7,698 nt of DNA. Source: a virus. Lineage: Duplodnaviria; Heunggongvirae; Uroviricota; Caudoviricetes. The notes beneath the pieces were generated by a model. The model was not told the DNA's origin and made no database searches. It saw only the letters and a list, made by a program, of their open reading frames with translations. Below, in pieces: positions 1 to 6,694 of this stretch. Each line of letters begins with the position of its first letter. Positions within the stretch are counted from its first letter, which is position 1. The stretch is taken from IMG/VR virus record IMGVR_UViG_2684622670_000020. The stretch is one strand, 5' to 3'. The translations under genes were made by a program, and so were the position numbers.

Positions 1-17
1 TCACGCCGCATCCGGCA
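1..17 (-). repeat. partial REP-like (repetitive extragenic palindrome) sequence at window edge
   Basis: Reverse complement of 1-17 reads TGCCGGATGCGGCGTGA, which matches the start of a common E. coli REP unit as I recall it. The element is cut by the window edge, so the palindrome partner cannot be seen. Confidence 0.35.
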
Positions 18-264
18 TGAACAAAGCGCACGTTGTCTGGCCCCCTGCGGGTAAACGCGCCTGCCACAATTTTTTACCGTTGCTCATGTTGTAAGCGCGC
101 AGGTAGTTATCTGCCGTAGCGGCGATAAACAGCACATTACCCGCAGTAGAGATCGGCCCGCCCAGCATCGGCATTTCCATATTTAACGGTACCGGAACGG
201 GCATCGGGAACGACATGCTGTCCTGCGGCGTACCAATGCGTTTCTTTTCACAAATTGAACTTTA
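1..264 (-). pseudogene. gcd: truncated 3' fragment of a PQQ-dependent (quinoprotein) glucose dehydrogenase gene
   Basis: Minus-strand frame is open from the in-frame stop at 262-264 to the TGA at 1-3 (ORF track 1..216 starts at the first Met). The segment PMLGGPISTAGNVLFIAATADNYLRAYNMSNGKKLWQARLPAGGQ matches my recollection of the C-terminal propeller region of E. coli Gcd. The last 11 codons (TTCALFMPDAA) run into the REP-like sequence and do not look like Gcd. A full gene would need about 700 more codons upstream, which are absent. Confidence 0.55.
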
Positions 265-573: not shown

Positions 574-1800
574 GTGGCTGGCACAAACAAACTGAGTGAT
601 AAAAAATTAAGATCGCTTCTCGGCGTAAAGCGGGATTCAGTAATTACCATTGCGGATGGTGAAGGATTAAGCATCAAAGTATCCATGATGGGATGCATTA
701 GTTGGGTTTTCTCTTATCGTCTTGGTGGGCGTGGGAGCAAGTTAGAGCGCATTGTTCTTGGGCGTTACCCTGACATGTCGTTGAAAATGGCCAGGGAGAA
801 GAGGGAACTATGCCGAAAATGGTATGCGGAAGGGCTGAATCCACGACTTGAATTAGAACTTAGCGCAGAAGAAAACCTTAACCCCGTAACTGTCCATGAT
901 GCCCTTGAATATTGGCTAATTCATTACGCAAGAAAAAAACGTAGTGACGAGGAACTGGTGCGGGCGCAATTACGTAAGCATATTTATCCGCGTCTTGGCC
1001 ACTATCCGTTATCCCGGTGTGAAACGCGTCACTGGGTGGCATGTTTTGATGAAATTAACCAGTCCAGGCCAATCACTGCCGGGCGAATGTTCCAGATTTG
1101 TAAACAGGCCTTAAGATTCTGCAAGGTTCGCCGTTATGCCTCATGTGATGCCCTGGCTTTTATGACAATCCAGGATGTAGGGCAACCATCGGGGCAGCGT
1201 GATAGGGTGCTGTCAGATAGTGAGTTAGCTGATGTATGGCGGTGTACTTATAGCGATGAACAGCAACTTTATTATCTTCGTCTGCTTAAGTTGCTTGTGC
1301 TGTTTGGGGCGCGAACAATGGAAGTAAGATTATCCCGGTGGAGTGAATGGGATTTTCAGTCATGGATTTGGACGGTTCCTAAAGAACACAGCAAAACTCG
1401 TGAAAAAATAGTTCGTCCAATTCCAGAGGGCATTCGCCCATGGATTGAGGATCTAAAAAAGGAAACGGGAAAAACAGGAATTGTACTGGGTGAAGAACGT
1501 TCCCGCCAGGCTGCTTCGCTTAAAGGGCGTAGGCTATACAAAGATTTTCATCATAATGAGCCATGGACGCTTCACGATTTGCGCAGAACATTTTCTACAG
1601 GTTTAAATAATATGGGTATTGCGCCACATATTGTAGAGCTTTTACTTGGTCATGCATTGCCGGGGGTGATGGCTATTTATAACCGTAGTCTGTACTTACC
1701 TGAGAAAATGGATGCGTTGAATAAGTGGTATGGCCGATTAGAACTTCTGGCGGGTAATCATCAAAATGTGGTGCTGTTACCTGTATCGAATAGAGGTTAA
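574..1800 (+). CDS. int: P4-family tyrosine site-specific integrase
   Basis: N-terminal arm-binding-type segment (NKLSDKKLRSLL...DGEGLSIKVS...WVFSYRLGG...LGRYPDMSLKMAREKR). C-terminal catalytic signature HDLRRTFST ... LLGH ... AIYNRS (His-x-x-Arg, His, Tyr nucleophile). The ORF track opens at GTG 526; I prefer GTG 574, which is in frame and sits 4 nt after a GGAGG Shine-Dalgarno at 565-569, giving M-AGTNKLSDKK. Confidence 0.88.
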   Translation: MAGTNKLSDKKLRSLLGVKRDSVITIADGEGLSIKVSMMGCISWVFSYRLGGRGSKLERIVLGRYPDMSLKMAREKRELCRKWYAEGLNPRLELELSAEENLNPVTVHDALEYWLIHYARKKRSDEELVRAQLRKHIYPRLGHYPLSRCETRHWVACFDEINQSRPITAGRMFQICKQALRFCKVRRYASCDALAFMTIQDVGQPSGQRDRVLSDSELADVWRCTYSDEQQLYYLRLLKLLVLFGARTMEVRLSRWSEWDFQSWIWTVPKEHSKTREKIVRPIPEGIRPWIEDLKKETGKTGIVLGEERSRQAASLKGRRLYKDFHHNEPWTLHDLRRTFSTGLNNMGIAPHIVELLLGHALPGVMAIYNRSLYLPEKMDALNKWYGRLELLAGNHQNVVLLPVSNRG

Positions 1801-1891
1801 ACTGATATTACGGGCATAGGTCGGCCAACCGAAAAGCGGGAAACCCTACCCGCCTGGCTCGTAAAGTATTTAGGGCGTTGAGGGTAGCGCA

Positions 1892-2821
1892 ATGGCTAAC
1901 GACATTAAAATTCCTTTTCAGTATTGCAACATTGAACGTGCATCAAGATTGCTGGGTTGCGAGATTAGCGATCTCGTGAATTTAGGTGTTACTAAAAAAA
2001 TAGCTTTATGCCTAAATTTATTTGATGCTCGCGCTGTTTTATATATGAATACTGATAGCAAGTCTGCAACTGCTTGGTTTGATACCAGAAATGCAAAATC
2101 GACCACATCACTGATGGGGAACAATATTACTGAATACTCCAGATTTCATCTTTTCAGATACAATTATAACGAGGAGACAGATGAAACTATACACGCGCCT
2201 TTATTCGGTCAAGACTCAGAAAACGGATGCTTTAGCTCTATTGGTAGGGCTTATGGATTGTGGCGCCTTTGGAGTGGGCTGGAAGAGCTACAAAATTTTG
2301 GAGAGTATTCCCTAAGTGGTTTTGAATTAACCCCGTGTCATCCAGAAACTGATAATCCTGCCGTACAACTTTTAATGGTTGGTGAAGATAGTGATTATGA
2401 TGAAGAAGACGATCAAATATTAAAGAATAATATTTCTATAAATGACTTGTGGATTACCGCTCATGATATAAGGCGACTTCTTGACTGTGGTGGCGATTAT
2501 TTTACGCTAACAGATAATTTTGAATCTGTAGAACCTCACAAGATGAATGGCAATGAAATTGTGCACCATTCTGCTGAAAGACATGCAAGAAATCGAGAGC
2601 AAATTTTAATGGTTGCTATGCGTTTTAAAGAAGAGCAACAAAATACTTTTAATGAGACCTGCAGAAAAAACGATGGAACGATTAACTATTCTGCTTGGGC
2701 TCGTGAGTTGATCGCCAGACCTGATTGGTTCATTAATAGTGAATTGCCAATAAAAACAGAAACAAAAATAGCAGCAATTTTAAGTAATGCTCATAAGAGG
2801 CCGAGTGAAAGGTCGCAGTAA
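1892..2821 (+). CDS. hypothetical protein, 309 aa, AT-rich orphan cargo gene
   Basis: Long ORF with ATG at 1892 and GAGGG 7 nt upstream. Strongly AT-rich compared with its neighbours (hand count of 2401-2460 gives 17 of 60 G+C; 5041-5100 in rep gives 34 of 60). Contains an acidic stretch EDSDYDEEDDQ. No catalytic motif recognised. Confidence 0.7.
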   Translation: MANDIKIPFQYCNIERASRLLGCEISDLVNLGVTKKIALCLNLFDARAVLYMNTDSKSATAWFDTRNAKSTTSLMGNNITEYSRFHLFRYNYNEETDETIHAPLFGQDSENGCFSSIGRAYGLWRLWSGLEELQNFGEYSLSGFELTPCHPETDNPAVQLLMVGEDSDYDEEDDQILKNNISINDLWITAHDIRRLLDCGGDYFTLTDNFESVEPHKMNGNEIVHHSAERHARNREQILMVAMRFKEEQQNTFNETCRKNDGTINYSAWARELIARPDWFINSELPIKTETKIAAILSNAHKRPSERSQ

Positions 2822-2958: not shown

Positions 2959-3243
2959 ATGACAAAAACTACATTCATTCCCCCAACTCCAGAACAACGC
3001 CGGGCGCTTCTTGAAGAATACGGTTTTGAATTTGATCGCCGTATCCGTGAAAAGGAATGCCAGGAAATCACCAGTCTGTCGCGCTCAACTCGCTTCAAAA
3101 TGGAAAATGAAGGGCGTTTCCCGCTTCGTTGTCATTTCGGGCGCAATAGCTGTGCGTGGCTTCTCTCTGATGTGCTTTGGTGGGTTCGTAACCCACCTGC
3201 TGTAGATAAAGTCAATAATCCGTACGGTAAGAAAGCTGCATAA
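2959..3243 (+). CDS. alpA: AlpA-family (phage/prophage) transcriptional regulator or excision activator, HTH
   Basis: The segment ITSLSRSTRFKMENEGRFPLRCHFGRNSCAWLLSDVLWWV fits the AlpA pattern (TGLSRSTIYRL..G.FP.P.K.G.R.V.W..SEV..WI). ATG at 2959 is preceded by GGAGG at 2950-2954. The ORF track opens at TTG 2917, which I consider less likely. The protein has an N-terminal extension relative to 70-aa AlpA. Confidence 0.7.
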   Translation: MTKTTFIPPTPEQRRALLEEYGFEFDRRIREKECQEITSLSRSTRFKMENEGRFPLRCHFGRNSCAWLLSDVLWWVRNPPAVDKVNNPYGKKAA

Positions 3244-4116: not shown

Positions 4117-4416
4117 ATGAAACAGAAAAATTCTGGCTTTACTGCCAGCGGCCTCCCTCGGCCTGAAATCTGCCCCGGCGATATTTACCGGGATAAATAC
4201 GGCAGCACGGTAATGATTAAAGGTGTTGCCGGACGGTGCGTTACTTACCGCCGTGAAGGTTATGAATATGACTGCGTGATGTCTGTTTATCAGTTCCGGC
4301 GTGATTTTTCTCTGGTACAGAACGCAACACGCGGTAAGCCCACCAGCAGGGAAAAAGCACGGGAAAATATTAAGAAAATAAAAAGCATGCTCAGCGCATC
4401 CAGAGGTAAAAAATGA
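4117..4416 (+). CDS. small hypothetical protein, 99 aa, basic C-terminus
   Basis: ATG 4117 with GGAGA upstream; its stop overlaps the rep start (ATGA at 4413-4416). No family recognised. Confidence 0.55.
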   Translation: MKQKNSGFTASGLPRPEICPGDIYRDKYGSTVMIKGVAGRCVTYRREGYEYDCVMSVYQFRRDFSLVQNATRGKPTSREKARENIKKIKSMLSASRGKK

Positions 4417-5819
4417 AACTGGCACCAAACGTAAAACTGTTACCGAAAGATAAACACACTGAGGCGGTTATTTTTGCGGGTGATAATGCTCACTCCTTTG
4501 CAGAACATTACATGATTGCACAGGCCAAAAAAGCAGGCGATCCCATCCCTCCGGTTTACCTGGGCCGTTATCAGTTAAGCGAACTGGACAATTTACAGAT
4601 TGTTGATGAAGGACGATACAGAGCAAAGGTCATACGCGCCGGAAACCTGGACGATATGCAGATGCTGACCATTGCCACAAAACTGGCGATCGCAGGTGTC
4701 CGGGAAGCGCGGTTACTTTCAGAGAATTTCGAACTACTGGAGGACTGGAGCGAGCAACTACCGCGCCTTAAAGAAACCTGGGAACGTGGGGAAAGCCTGG
4801 TCATGAATGGTGGAAAGCGAAAAATCACACTTCCCATCTCATGGGGTTCTGAGGGATTCGACGCGCAGCAAAGCTACGTAATTAAGGGGCTTATTCCGGC
4901 TGAATCATTATGCAGCACCTACGGCGCGAGTGGTTCCTATAAATCGTTCCTCGCTATCTCCTGGTCGTGCCATGTTGCCACAGGTATGGCATGGGGAGGC
5001 CGCAGGGTAAGTAAGGGCGCGGTTATCTATATCGCTGGCGAAGGCAGTATGGGCGTAAAACGCCGCGTTAAGGCGTGGGAGATAACCCACGACAAGGTGG
5101 TTACAGATTTGTGCATCATTAACGCGCCTGTTTTCCCCGCATCGCCTGACTATGTGGAGCAGGTTATCAGGACTGCCGGACTTGTTAAGAGCAGAACGGG
5201 CGAAAATGTGCGGCTGATTGTGATCGACACACTGGCCCGTTGCTTTGGTGGGAATGATGAAAATGATTCCCGCGATATGGGCGCATTTATCCAGGGGTGT
5301 GACGCGATAAAGCAGGCCACAGGGGCCACGGTGCTGGTGGTTCACCATTCCGGCAAGGATGAAACAAAGGGGGCGCGTGGTTCCAGCGCATTCCGTGCCG
5401 CGCTTGATGCAGAGTACCGAATCAGCCGGGAAAATTCAGACGTTACAGCACTGGTGGCGGCGTGTACGAAGATGAAGGACGCAGAGGAGCCAAAAGAAAG
5501 CGCATACGACCTTAAAAGCGTGGAGGTGTTTACCGATACAGATGGCGAAGAGATTGTGTCTATGGTGGTGATTGACGTTCCCCGCGCCCCTGCTGAACTG
5601 GAGCGCATAGAGGAGGCCGGGAACAAGACGGAAAATCACGCCGCATTATGGCAGTGCATCAGAACACGGGCAGCACACAAAGAGCCATGCACTATCGCCC
5701 TGCTACGCGACGATATGAAAAAGCTGGGGTATGAGATGAAGCACTTCCGGCGCTGGCTGTACAAGCTGGAAAATGATGGCGTAATCGTTATTGACGGTGA
5801 TGACGTGCGCCCACTGTAA
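4413..5819 (+). CDS. RepA-like (AAA_25 / DnaB-like RecA-fold) replication ATPase-helicase of the island
   Basis: P-loop-like GASGSYKS, Walker-B-like LIVIDTLARCFGGNDENDS and VLVVHHSGKD, which is the motif order of RepA/AAA_25 replicative ATPases. About 90 C-terminal residues look like a separate possible DNA-binding domain. An iteron array lies immediately downstream. Confidence 0.75.
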   Translation: MKLAPNVKLLPKDKHTEAVIFAGDNAHSFAEHYMIAQAKKAGDPIPPVYLGRYQLSELDNLQIVDEGRYRAKVIRAGNLDDMQMLTIATKLAIAGVREARLLSENFELLEDWSEQLPRLKETWERGESLVMNGGKRKITLPISWGSEGFDAQQSYVIKGLIPAESLCSTYGASGSYKSFLAISWSCHVATGMAWGGRRVSKGAVIYIAGEGSMGVKRRVKAWEITHDKVVTDLCIINAPVFPASPDYVEQVIRTAGLVKSRTGENVRLIVIDTLARCFGGNDENDSRDMGAFIQGCDAIKQATGATVLVVHHSGKDETKGARGSSAFRAALDAEYRISRENSDVTALVAACTKMKDAEEPKESAYDLKSVEVFTDTDGEEIVSMVVIDVPRAPAELERIEEAGNKTENHAALWQCIRTRAAHKEPCTIALLRDDMKKLGYEMKHFRRWLYKLENDGVIVIDGDDVRPL

Positions 5820-5820
5820 A

Positions 5821-6022
5821 AAGTGGGGAGTAAAAGTGGGGAGTATGGGGAATTTAACAAAATTGAAACACTATTCCCCACTTTTCGACCTGTATACATC
5901 CAAAAAAGTGGGGAGTAAAAAACACAATGAAAAACAAAGCATTAGATTCACCCAAAAAACGAGATGGGGAGCAAGTGGGGAATTTAAAAAGTGGGGAGCA
6001 AAAGTGGGGAGTGGTGGGGAAT
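5821..6022. repeat. iteron array, putative origin of replication of the island
   Basis: Ten copies of the core (G/A)TGGGGA: direct at 5823, 5836, 5845, 5908, 5964, 5975, 5991, 6004 and 6014, and inverted at 5875-5881. They form two clusters (5823-5851 and 5964-6020) flanking an AT-rich stretch, immediately 3' of rep. Confidence 0.6.
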
Positions 6023-6272
6023 GACCAGAAAAACCAGAGATAAGACAGCGCCAAAATATAAAGCATTAGACATGACAGAGCACGCCTTAAAGGTGGCAAT
6101 CAGAACGATAGACCGCCATGCCGGGGAAGGATACGCGAAAGCACATCCCGAACTGATAAGCGCATTCATGACCACGGCGGCGGCAAACTTTGCCACGCTG
6201 ACTGAGCGGGAAATTGCGGAAGCGGAACAGGTGACAACCATCAACGTTAAAACCGGAGAGGTGACAGCATGA
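6021..6272 (+). CDS. small hypothetical protein, about 83 aa
   Basis: ATG 6021 lies 9 nt after GGGAG inside the last iteron; the ORF track opens at GTG 5991, within the repeats. Its stop overlaps the ssb start (ATGA at 6269-6272). No family recognised. Confidence 0.5.
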   Translation: MTRKTRDKTAPKYKALDMTEHALKVAIRTIDRHAGEGYAKAHPELISAFMTTAAANFATLTEREIAEAEQVTTINVKTGEVTA

Positions 6273-6694
6273 CAGCACAGATAGCGGCTTACGGGCGGCT
6301 GGTGGCTGACCCGCAGTTAAAAACCACCAGCAAGGGAACACAAATGGCGATGGCGAGTATGGCGGTTTCCCTGCCGTGCAGCCAGGCCGATGACGGAACG
6401 GCGACGATGTGGTTATCCGTTCTGGCGTTTGGCAGACAGGCCGATGCACTGGCCAGGCACCACAAAGGCGAACTGGTGAGCGTGGCGGGTAACATGCAGG
6501 TAAGCCAGTGGACAGGCCAGAACGGCGAAACGCGGCAGGGCTGGCAGGTCATCGCAGACAGTGTAATCAGTGCGCGAACGGCGCGACCGGGCGGCAAAAA
6601 AGGTCAACAGGGCCAGGCCACTGACGCACTGAACAGGGCAAAACAACAGACAGGCCAGCACGATGACCCGTACGGGGACGGGATACCGTTTTAA
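6269..6694 (+). CDS. ssb: single-stranded DNA-binding protein (SSB)
   Basis: OB-fold pattern aligns by eye to E. coli SSB (MWLSVLAFGRQAD vs EWHRVVLFGKLAE; KGELVSVAGNMQVSQWTGQNGETRQGW vs [27 protein letters not shown]). Gly/Gln-rich linker, and acidic C-terminal tail DDPYGDGIPF ending in the SSB hallmark IPF. Confidence 0.85.
   Translation: MTAQIAAYGRLVADPQLKTTSKGTQMAMASMAVSLPCSQADDGTATMWLSVLAFGRQADALARHHKGELVSVAGNMQVSQWTGQNGETRQGWQVIADSVISARTARPGGKKGQQGQATDALNRAKQQTGQHDDPYGDGIPF

Follow-up and report, generated by a model that had tools for sequence, protein, structure and literature searches.

The window analysed here, a stretch of 7,698 nucleotides from the Caudoviricetes record IMGVR_UViG_2684622670_000020, contains an open reading frame that resembles an SSB (single-stranded DNA-binding protein) gene. 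The question raised by this locus is whether a mobile island encodes a genuine SSB of its own and, if so, whether the protein serves replication of the island or acts on the partners of the host SSB. A first-pass annotation had placed an SSB with an OB-fold core and a host-type tail at 6269-6694, ending in DDPYGDGIPF. The open reading frame and its translation gave exactly these coordinates and this end.

The ssb coding sequence (6269..6694, plus strand) starts with ATG, stops with TAA and encodes 141 aa with the C-terminal end QHDDPYGDGIPF / TGQHDDPYGDGIPF. A Shine-Dalgarno-like GGAGAGG (6255..6261, plus strand) lies 7 nt before the ATG. The product matched the Pfam SSB family (PF00436) with 59.4 bits (E = 4e-16) over residues 5-99, covering positions 4-101 of the 104-position profile, and the NCBIfam model TIGR00621 with 64.1 bits. 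Both scores were above the curated cut-offs of 26 and 53.95 bits, respectively. PHROG 44, named 'single strand DNA binding protein', was matched at 4.9e-40, and phmmer against the PDB returned solved SSBs (best 1.1e-10) with one weak non-SSB match.

The structure was predicted with AlphaFold2 as a single chain, using 33 relatives. From residue 1 to approximately 103, the 10-residue blocks had mean pLDDT values of 83-93, and the six predicted strands (2-11, 16-19, 25-36, 44-54, 69-82, and 88-101) and one helix (55-62) of the model are arranged in an OB topology. When this model was compared with the PDB by Foldseek, all 50 of the 50 matches listed were bacterial SSBs, with target-normalised TM-scores of 0.60-0.79. 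The predicted OB-fold ssDNA-binding core occupies residues 1-103 (6269..6577, plus strand). It is followed by a predicted disordered linker of approximately 28 residues (residues 104-131; 6578..6661, plus strand), which is marked by low pLDDT and by indels among relatives, and by the C-terminal tip DDPYGDGIPF (residues 132-141; 6662..6691, plus strand), the equivalent of SSB-Ct. The pLDDT fell below 50 at residues 104-125 and 127-141. The OB-fold core that the first-pass annotation had recognised was borne out far above chance by the agreement of Pfam, TIGR00621, PDB sequence matches, AlphaFold, and Foldseek; the profile searches, which it had named as a possible refutation, likewise supported an SSB OB fold, with PF00436 and TIGR00621 both above cut-off. 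The island gene is a genuine bacterial-type SSB.

The island protein was compared to the chromosomal SSB of E. coli, using a reference sequence identical to PDB 1EQQ chain A. Both proteins have an OB fold and a disordered C-terminal region ending in I-P-F, and their cores are 27% identical, a value that rules out recent capture of ssb from the host. Island residues W48, F54, and W81 align with the ssDNA-stacking W54, F60, and W88 of E. coli SSB, whereas W40 has no island equivalent, the aligned residue being Q39 within a shortened loop. Of the four aromatic residues that stack on ssDNA in E. coli SSB, three are kept, and they are nearly invariant among relatives. His55 of E. coli SSB, the site of the classical ssb-1 tetramer-stability mutation, is Leu in the island protein. 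The island SSB is also shorter (141 aa compared to 178 aa) and is encoded by a mobile element. Its linker of approximately 28 residues is not rich in Gly, Gln, or Pro, compared to an E. coli linker given as 56 residues (PMC7145534).

The surroundings of the gene were then used to define the element. Contig BBVP01000015.1 (GCA_001514785.1) ends in a stretch that is 100% identical to the window, and CP117654.1 contains a complete copy (L095) that is 99.99% identical over all 7698 bases and extends past the window. At the window's left end, an integrase gene (574..1800, plus strand; Pfam Arm-DNA-bind_3, Phage_int_M, and Phage_integrase; called as a gene in L095 and in L100) and a called gene for an AlpA-family regulator/excisionase (2959..3243, plus strand; Pfam Phage_AlpA, 3.8e-11) stand beside a gcd remnant, and the complete element of approximately 15 kb lies between gcd and hpt. 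The earlier description of the locus as an island is therefore correct.

The gene order of the complete copy begins with integrase, a 309-aa protein, AlpA, an opposite-strand Arc/YlcI-like gene, and 65- and 75-aa ORFs. It continues with DUF4222, a RepA-type helicase, iterons, an 83-aa ORF (ORF83), SSB, a ProQ/FinO-domain protein, PerC, and ORF82, and it ends with HK97-type capsid, prohead protease, portal, head closure, connector, HNH, TerS, TerL, and ORF93, followed by hpt. Directly 3' of ssb, the ProQ/FinO-domain gene (6731..7267, plus strand; Pfam ProQ, 2.1e-25) was present in 25 of 80 related loci, and next to it lies the PerC-family regulator (7264..7545, plus strand; Pfam PerC, 6.5e-36). 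PerC variants are encoded by some E. coli PICIs (Fillol-Salom 2018, PMC6092414). The left end has the PICI layout described in the same paper, with integrase, AlpA, DUF4222, and AAA_25 helicase all on the plus strand and then the iteron origin. Capsid-forming PICIs (cf-PICIs) have been delimited as elements of approximately 10-18 kb with their own capsid and packaging module and without tail or lysis genes (10.1101/2025.02.11.637232), the module consisting of capsid, protease, portal, connector, HNH, TerS, and TerL. The complete copy has this size and, beyond the window, continues with precisely these genes up to hpt. Judged by its gene content, the element is a phage satellite, namely a capsid-forming PICI of Escherichia. 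The core genes flanking the island are approximately 92% identical to those of E. coli; therefore, the host is a non-coli Escherichia. At gcd/hpt, some E. coli relatives have this packaging module, and others have the set known from classical PICIs, with capsid-like, decoration, and TerS genes. A comparison of the two ends of L095 (3600-4320 and 18200-19300) for attL/attR direct repeats gave only two shared 12-mers, which are unconvincing, so the island ends are approximate.

Within the island, ssb belongs to a replication module. A DUF4222 gene (4117..4416, plus strand; Pfam DUF4222, 9.4e-24) is its conserved companion, present in 75 of the 80 SSB-bearing loci, and overlaps the start of the helicase gene. 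The helicase (4413..5819, plus strand) is a RepA-family protein with a RecA fold (Pfam AAA_25, 3.3e-43) and the putative replication initiator of the island; its RefSeq relatives are annotated as 'helicase RepA family protein'. From the helicase stop codon to ORF83 extends an iteron array (5818..6020, no strand assigned), which on repeat counts is the putative origin of satellite replication. The octamer AGTGGGGA is present in seven copies at 5822-6010 around an A+T-rich stretch, six on one strand and one on the other. It is expected 0.2 times in the whole window, and seven copies were reached in none of 200 shuffles. ORF83 (6021..6272, plus strand), which was present in the ORF list, is called in relatives and matched PHROG 1231, follows the array, and its TGA overlaps the ATG of ssb by 4 nt (ATGA, 6269-6272). 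This overlap suggests that the two genes are probably translationally coupled. The ssb gene thus lies approximately 450 bp past the helicase stop codon, with the iteron array between.

In PICIs, the origin comes after the replication genes, and the origins of E. coli PICIs consist of two iteron sets flanking an AT-rich region (Fillol-Salom 2018, PMC6092414). The position of ssb directly after the helicase gene and the iteron origin fits a role in island replication. We consider it probable that the satellite SSB covers the DNA that is opened at the satellite origin and attracts host replisome proteins by means of its tip. In this model, induction of the island by a helper phage would lead to transcription of the rightward operon, and the RepA-type helicase would open the iteron origin directly upstream of ssb. 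The OB core would then cover the exposed single strands, probably as a tetramer, and the flexible tail ending in D-x-I-P-F may dock with partners of host SSB such as Pol III chi, in the hydrophobic pocket and basic rim that these use. Docking of the tip could bring the host replisome to satellite DNA, and a private supply of SSB may permit quick amplification of the satellite while the helper phage and the host compete for host SSB.

Several observations count against this replication role. Abundant host SSB could serve the island. The acidic patch of the tip is weaker than in E. coli, with variation at position 138 (the D174 equivalent), and the core has Leu in place of H55 and no equivalent of W40. 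Moreover, a rep-ori clone of EcCICFT073, the prototype Gram-negative PICI from E. coli CFT073, supported plasmid maintenance (PMC6092414); if this clone was without ssb, then SSB is a replication enhancer and not a requirement.

The neighbourhood of ssb was counted in 80 IMG/VR loci carrying close SSB homologues. The companions included the RepA-type helicase in 21 loci and a D5/DUF5906 'primase' in 27. The order of rep gene, iterons, small ORF, and ssb recurs with the RepA-type helicase, with the D5/DUF5906 'primase', and with a zinc-binding primase-helicase, the last of which precedes a Klebsiella relative of the SSB. The exact 141-aa SSB was also found directly after a DUF927 gene (L096), with no small ORF called between. 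Since the SSB stands beside several kinds of replication protein, it accompanies the satellite rep-ori cassette stably and irrespective of the initiator type. Pfam returned no family for the N-terminal 125-residue domain common to the helicase and the 'primase'.

These counts also bear on a different function, in which the SSB would act with the coupled 83-aa protein or with helper recombinases in the formation or processing of concatemers, not in fork progression. ORF83 was present in 55 of the 80 related loci and abutted ssb in 52 of them, the 4-nt ATGA overlap joins the two genes in the window, and phage SSBs are known to partner single-strand annealing proteins (PMC5928155 and PMC5499656). 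Against this, ORF83 matches only a PHROG of unknown function and, like the unrelated 257-aa ORF that takes its place in some islands, has no Pfam family; no ORF at all separates ssb from the DUF927 gene in L096. Furthermore, neither the window nor the complete copy of the island contains a recombinase gene. A recombination or packaging accessory is very improbable on this evidence, and it is ranked lower than the replication role, as are the three other readings discussed below.

The conservation of the protein was examined in relatives. The alignment of 33 relatives, which are 75-96% identical, shows no change at D137, P140, or F141 and at least 90% conservation of I139, whereas position 138 varies among G, N, D, and E. 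In the linker, relatives carry a 13-residue deletion or an 8-residue insertion. Among 65 distinct coding sequences, 54 end in DDPYGD[NG]IPF. Of the 120 homologues listed, 102 have 122-150 aa, a Met start, and a final F, with DDPYGDNIPF and DDPYGDGIPF as the commonest endings. Among more distant relatives, each standing for a cluster at 50% identity, the canonical ending [FP]DDx[IL]PF prevails. Both the 33-relative alignment and the 65 coding sequences thus have a conserved tip of the form D-x-IPF.

Pooled pairwise pN/pS values from the 65 distinct coding sequences were 0.16 in both the OB core and the linker and 0.24 in the tip; because the pairs are phylogenetically non-independent, these values show purifying selection over the whole gene only. 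The whole ssb gene, including the tip, is under purifying selection. A decaying gene was ruled out by pN/pS and conservation. It has also to be considered whether ssb is a non-functional passenger, as might be argued from its possible dispensability for maintenance of the rep-ori plasmid (PMC6092414). The selection data contradict this reading: pN/pS is 0.16-0.24 over the whole gene, the ORF is intact in all 65 coding sequences, 1802 complete E. coli genomes contain a homologue, and conservation extends to the tip, the ribosome-binding site, and the gene position. We regard a passenger gene as scarcely credible.

The tip itself was compared by eye from the C-terminus, with PMDFDDDIPF of E. coli set against DDPYGDGIPF of the island. 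Five positions are common to both: I-P-F, the Asp that corresponds to D173, and one aromatic position (F171 in E. coli, Y135 in the island). The equivalents of D172 and D174 are Gly, so that the DDD run becomes G-D-G and the acidic run is thinner. The term 'host-type' tail in the first-pass annotation applies to IPF, one Asp, and the aromatic residue, but not to the DDD acidic run. In the complex of E. coli SSB with chi, the last two residues, P176 and F177, occupy a hydrophobic pocket, the terminal carboxylate pairs with K124, and D172, D173, and D174 contact the basic residues K132, R135, and R128 of chi (PMC3045619). When these contacts are transferred to the island residues, the hydrophobic anchor of the tail appears intact and its electrostatic part thinner. 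With the weaker acidic patch, the affinity of the island tip for host partners may be lower or selective.

Since the acidic patch is consistently altered, the most interesting rival to the replication role is one in which the SSB acts mainly as a competitor, its tip drawing off from host or helper DNA the proteins that interact with host SSB, or the helper-phage proteins that use the host tip. Resources for replication or recombination would then be biased to the satellite, or the helper yield would be lowered. The tip is conserved yet systematically unlike that of the host (P-Y-G-D-x-IPF versus D-F-D-D-D-IPF), which could reflect tuned partner selectivity, and no phage relative above 30% identity was present in 50,697 phage records, so the protein was not simply taken over from helpers. 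Lambda is subject to interference by EcCICFT073, through a mechanism that the authors of that study had not identified (PMC6092414), and the Sak4 protein of HK620 is stimulated by its cognate SSB (PMC5928155). Nevertheless, purifying selection acts on the OB core just as it does on the tip, a pattern that favours real ssDNA binding over a tail-only decoy. The gene is also always in the replication module beside the origin and never in the variable accessory or interference zone. Such hijacking or interference is unlikely as the main function. We give a similarly low chance to a narrower proposal, that the re-shaped tip (P-Y-G-D-x-IPF) has been selected for a subset of host partners or for the satellite helicase, which would make the SSB a replisome-redirecting or helper-interfering factor.

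To return to the replication SSB, its spread was determined by blastn. Matches to ssb were found in 1802 of 5426 complete E. coli genomes, about a third, and in 1083 of these 1802 genomes the match covered at least 80% of ssb, with up to six copies per genome. The annotation 'single-stranded DNA-binding protein' underlies 39 of the 40 matches listed; the weakest of them, which is partial, falls on a PerC gene. The integration sites number at least five (gcd/hpt, yifB, cspD/clpS, roxA/phoQ, and pntB/mdtJ). Of the 2344 matching places in E. coli genomes, 2342 are chromosomal. The two 'plasmid' matches carry the same satellite-type cassette, and one of them is a complete cf-PICI flanked by chromosomal genes. 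A plasmid leading-region SSB of the F Ssb type, accompanied by psiB/ardA-type genes, was considered and rejected, given the 2342 chromosomal places and the satellite-gene neighbours.

In the collection of 50,697 phage records, the best relative of the island SSB was 29.5% identical, and no Escherichia phage matched at E <= 1e-5. Capture of ssb from helper phages was rejected for lack of an Escherichia phage match in this collection. Within this collection, the SSB lineage appears to be satellite-specific. A scan of genome contigs with the SSB alignment gave five loci (E. albertii, Pectobacterium versatile, and three distant MAG matches), which are too few for a taxonomic survey.

Conjugative plasmids and temperate phages in enterobacteria likewise encode bacterial-type SSBs with a conserved SSB-Ct tip, including the F-plasmid Ssb, the phage P1 Ssb, and the HK620 SSB, and complementation of E. 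coli ssb mutants is known for several of these. Unlike these plasmid and phage proteins, the island SSB is tied to the satellite rep-ori cassette, with no plasmid leading region and no close phage relative. The stimulation of Sak4 noted above comes from the same HK620 system. In SCCmec and other Bacillota elements, small OB-fold proteins are partners of A-family-polymerase primases (Rice 2023, PMC10061031). The SCCmec-type proteins and the island SSB both occur in mobile-element replication modules, and the C-terminal extension of the SCCmec type mediates protein contacts. The SCCmec-type partners are divergent OB folds recognised by structure prediction and are paired with a polymerase-derived primase, whereas the island SSB is a canonical PF00436 protein that ends in the standard IPF tip and is accompanied by no polymerase of this kind.

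A close relative among known elements is EcCICFT073. Its SSB (WP_000126698.1) is 69% identical to the island SSB, with the same OB core and the same type of tip (DDPYGDDIPF). The gene order is also like that of the island, namely pri-rep, iteron origin, small ORF, SSB, and PerC, and the EcCICFT073 iterons, of the CTGTCTACC type, occupy the same place as the island iterons. The differences lie in the linker, which in EcCICFT073 is without the ATDALNRAKQQ segment and has a GTQGNQPPAG insert, and in the replication neighbour, which is a D5/DUF5906-type 'primase' in EcCICFT073 and a RepA-type helicase in the island. EcCICFT073 is a classical PICI with capsid-like and decoration genes, whereas the island is a capsid-forming PICI.

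Satellites often carry defence or counter-defence genes, and some retron systems are reportedly triggered by phage SSBs. Thus, the island SSB might instead shield satellite or helper ssDNA from host nucleases, or modulate SSB-responsive immune systems. In a 2026 preprint, activation of the DRT10 defence system is stated to be under the control of an SSB-like protein encoded by a phage (10.64898/2026.04.29.721553). No PADLOC match was obtained among the eight window proteins scanned, which included the SSB; the gene keeps its fixed position in the replication module and is in no accessory hotspot, and no sequence feature points specifically to defence. We hold a defence-related role to be highly doubtful.

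In the literature on Gram-negative PICIs, SSB has been grouped with primase and DUF5906 under replication, on the ground that these genes are found together with mapped origins (2023, PMC10111431). Two preprints on cf-PICIs, the SatelliteFinder article, and the PICI study of 2018 (PMC6092414) make no mention of SSB. In the literature searched, no article treating cf-PICIs and SSB together and no functional study of any PICI SSB was found, and only PMC10111431 names SSB. The finding is an ordinary one. Genes of this kind are familiar, the protein family has an SSB annotation in RefSeq, and the element is likewise of a known kind that is already in the literature. It carries little weight as a discovery. 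Mobile elements with their own SSB and a conserved tip are a well-known theme. The gene has modest value as an experimental handle: since the prototype EcCICFT073 has a homologue, both the need for a private SSB versus the helper and the partner choice of the altered acidic patch become accessible. Whether the re-shaped tip alters partner choice is the mildly interesting point, and if the tip is truly specialised, the SSB would be more than a plain extra dose of SSB.

A minor observation concerns the 65- and 75-aa ORFs that precede DUF4222 in the complete copy. The ORFs at the same place in E. coli relatives bear the annotations Icd-like protein and hypothetical protein.

The intergenic region directly 3' of the stop codon of the RepA-type helicase gene contained an array of the iteron AGTGGGGA (window 5818-6020). 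The unit occurs seven times without mismatch, once in inverted orientation, around an A+T-rich stretch. This array is likely the replication origin of the satellite. In the mechanical ORF list, the gene after the iterons begins at GTG 5991 and runs into the array; the start called in relatives is the ATG at 6021.

From this ATG, the gene encodes an 83-aa protein (6021-6272, plus strand) assigned to PHROG 1231, a family of unknown function, with no Pfam match. Its stop codon overlaps the start of ssb, and it directly adjoins ssb in 52 of the 80 IMG/VR loci carrying close homologues of the window SSB. Some islands have an unrelated 257-aa ORF in its place, and no ORF was called at this position in the DUF927-type locus L096.

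On the other side of the array, residues 1 to ~125 of the helicase (window 4413-4790, plus strand) shared 45% identity with the N-terminus of the D5/DUF5906 'primase' of sister islands (15765-16160 in the compared locus L003). Beyond this common N-terminal domain, which had no Pfam match, the two proteins were unrelated. Both proteins may use this domain for docking to DUF4222, the origin or SSB.

Downstream of ssb, the next gene encodes a 178-aa ProQ/FinO-domain protein with a basic N-terminal extension (6731-7267, plus strand), followed by a PerC-family regulator (7264-7545, plus strand) whose gene overlaps it. Among the related loci, ProQ was present in 25/80 and PerC in 21/80. A second PerC gene was observed at the right end of the complete copy L094.

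Immediately 3' of the integrase stop codon lies a match to the int-alpA RNA motif (1809-1875, plus strand; Rfam RF02996), with a score of 55.2 bits (gathering score, 35.8). It is followed by a gene, located between the integrase and AlpA genes, for a 309-aa protein (1892-2821, plus strand), which matched only PHROG 7144, of unknown function, and nothing in Pfam, NCBIfam or PADLOC. A tblastn search of the 80 IMG/VR loci gave no match to the 309-aa protein, which suggests that its gene is accessory cargo of this island variant.

The left flank is a remnant of gcd, encoding quinoprotein glucose dehydrogenase (window 1-247, minus strand), with a 71-aa ORF at 1-216. Compared to the full 796-aa gcd of E. 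coli relatives, ~2.1 kb of the gene and its start are absent, and island-proximal sequence adjoins the remnant at about position 248. The remnant was ~90% identical to E. coli gcd. Judged by sequence identity, the host is a non-coli Escherichia, because the core genes neighbouring the island are ~92% identical to those of E. coli.

One compared record, CP088587.1 (32.5 kb), was deposited as an E. coli plasmid. It contains a complete cf-PICI with SSB, flanked by the chromosomal genes pntB and mdtJI, and probably represents a piece of the chromosome that was mis-assigned or had been excised, rather than a true plasmid.
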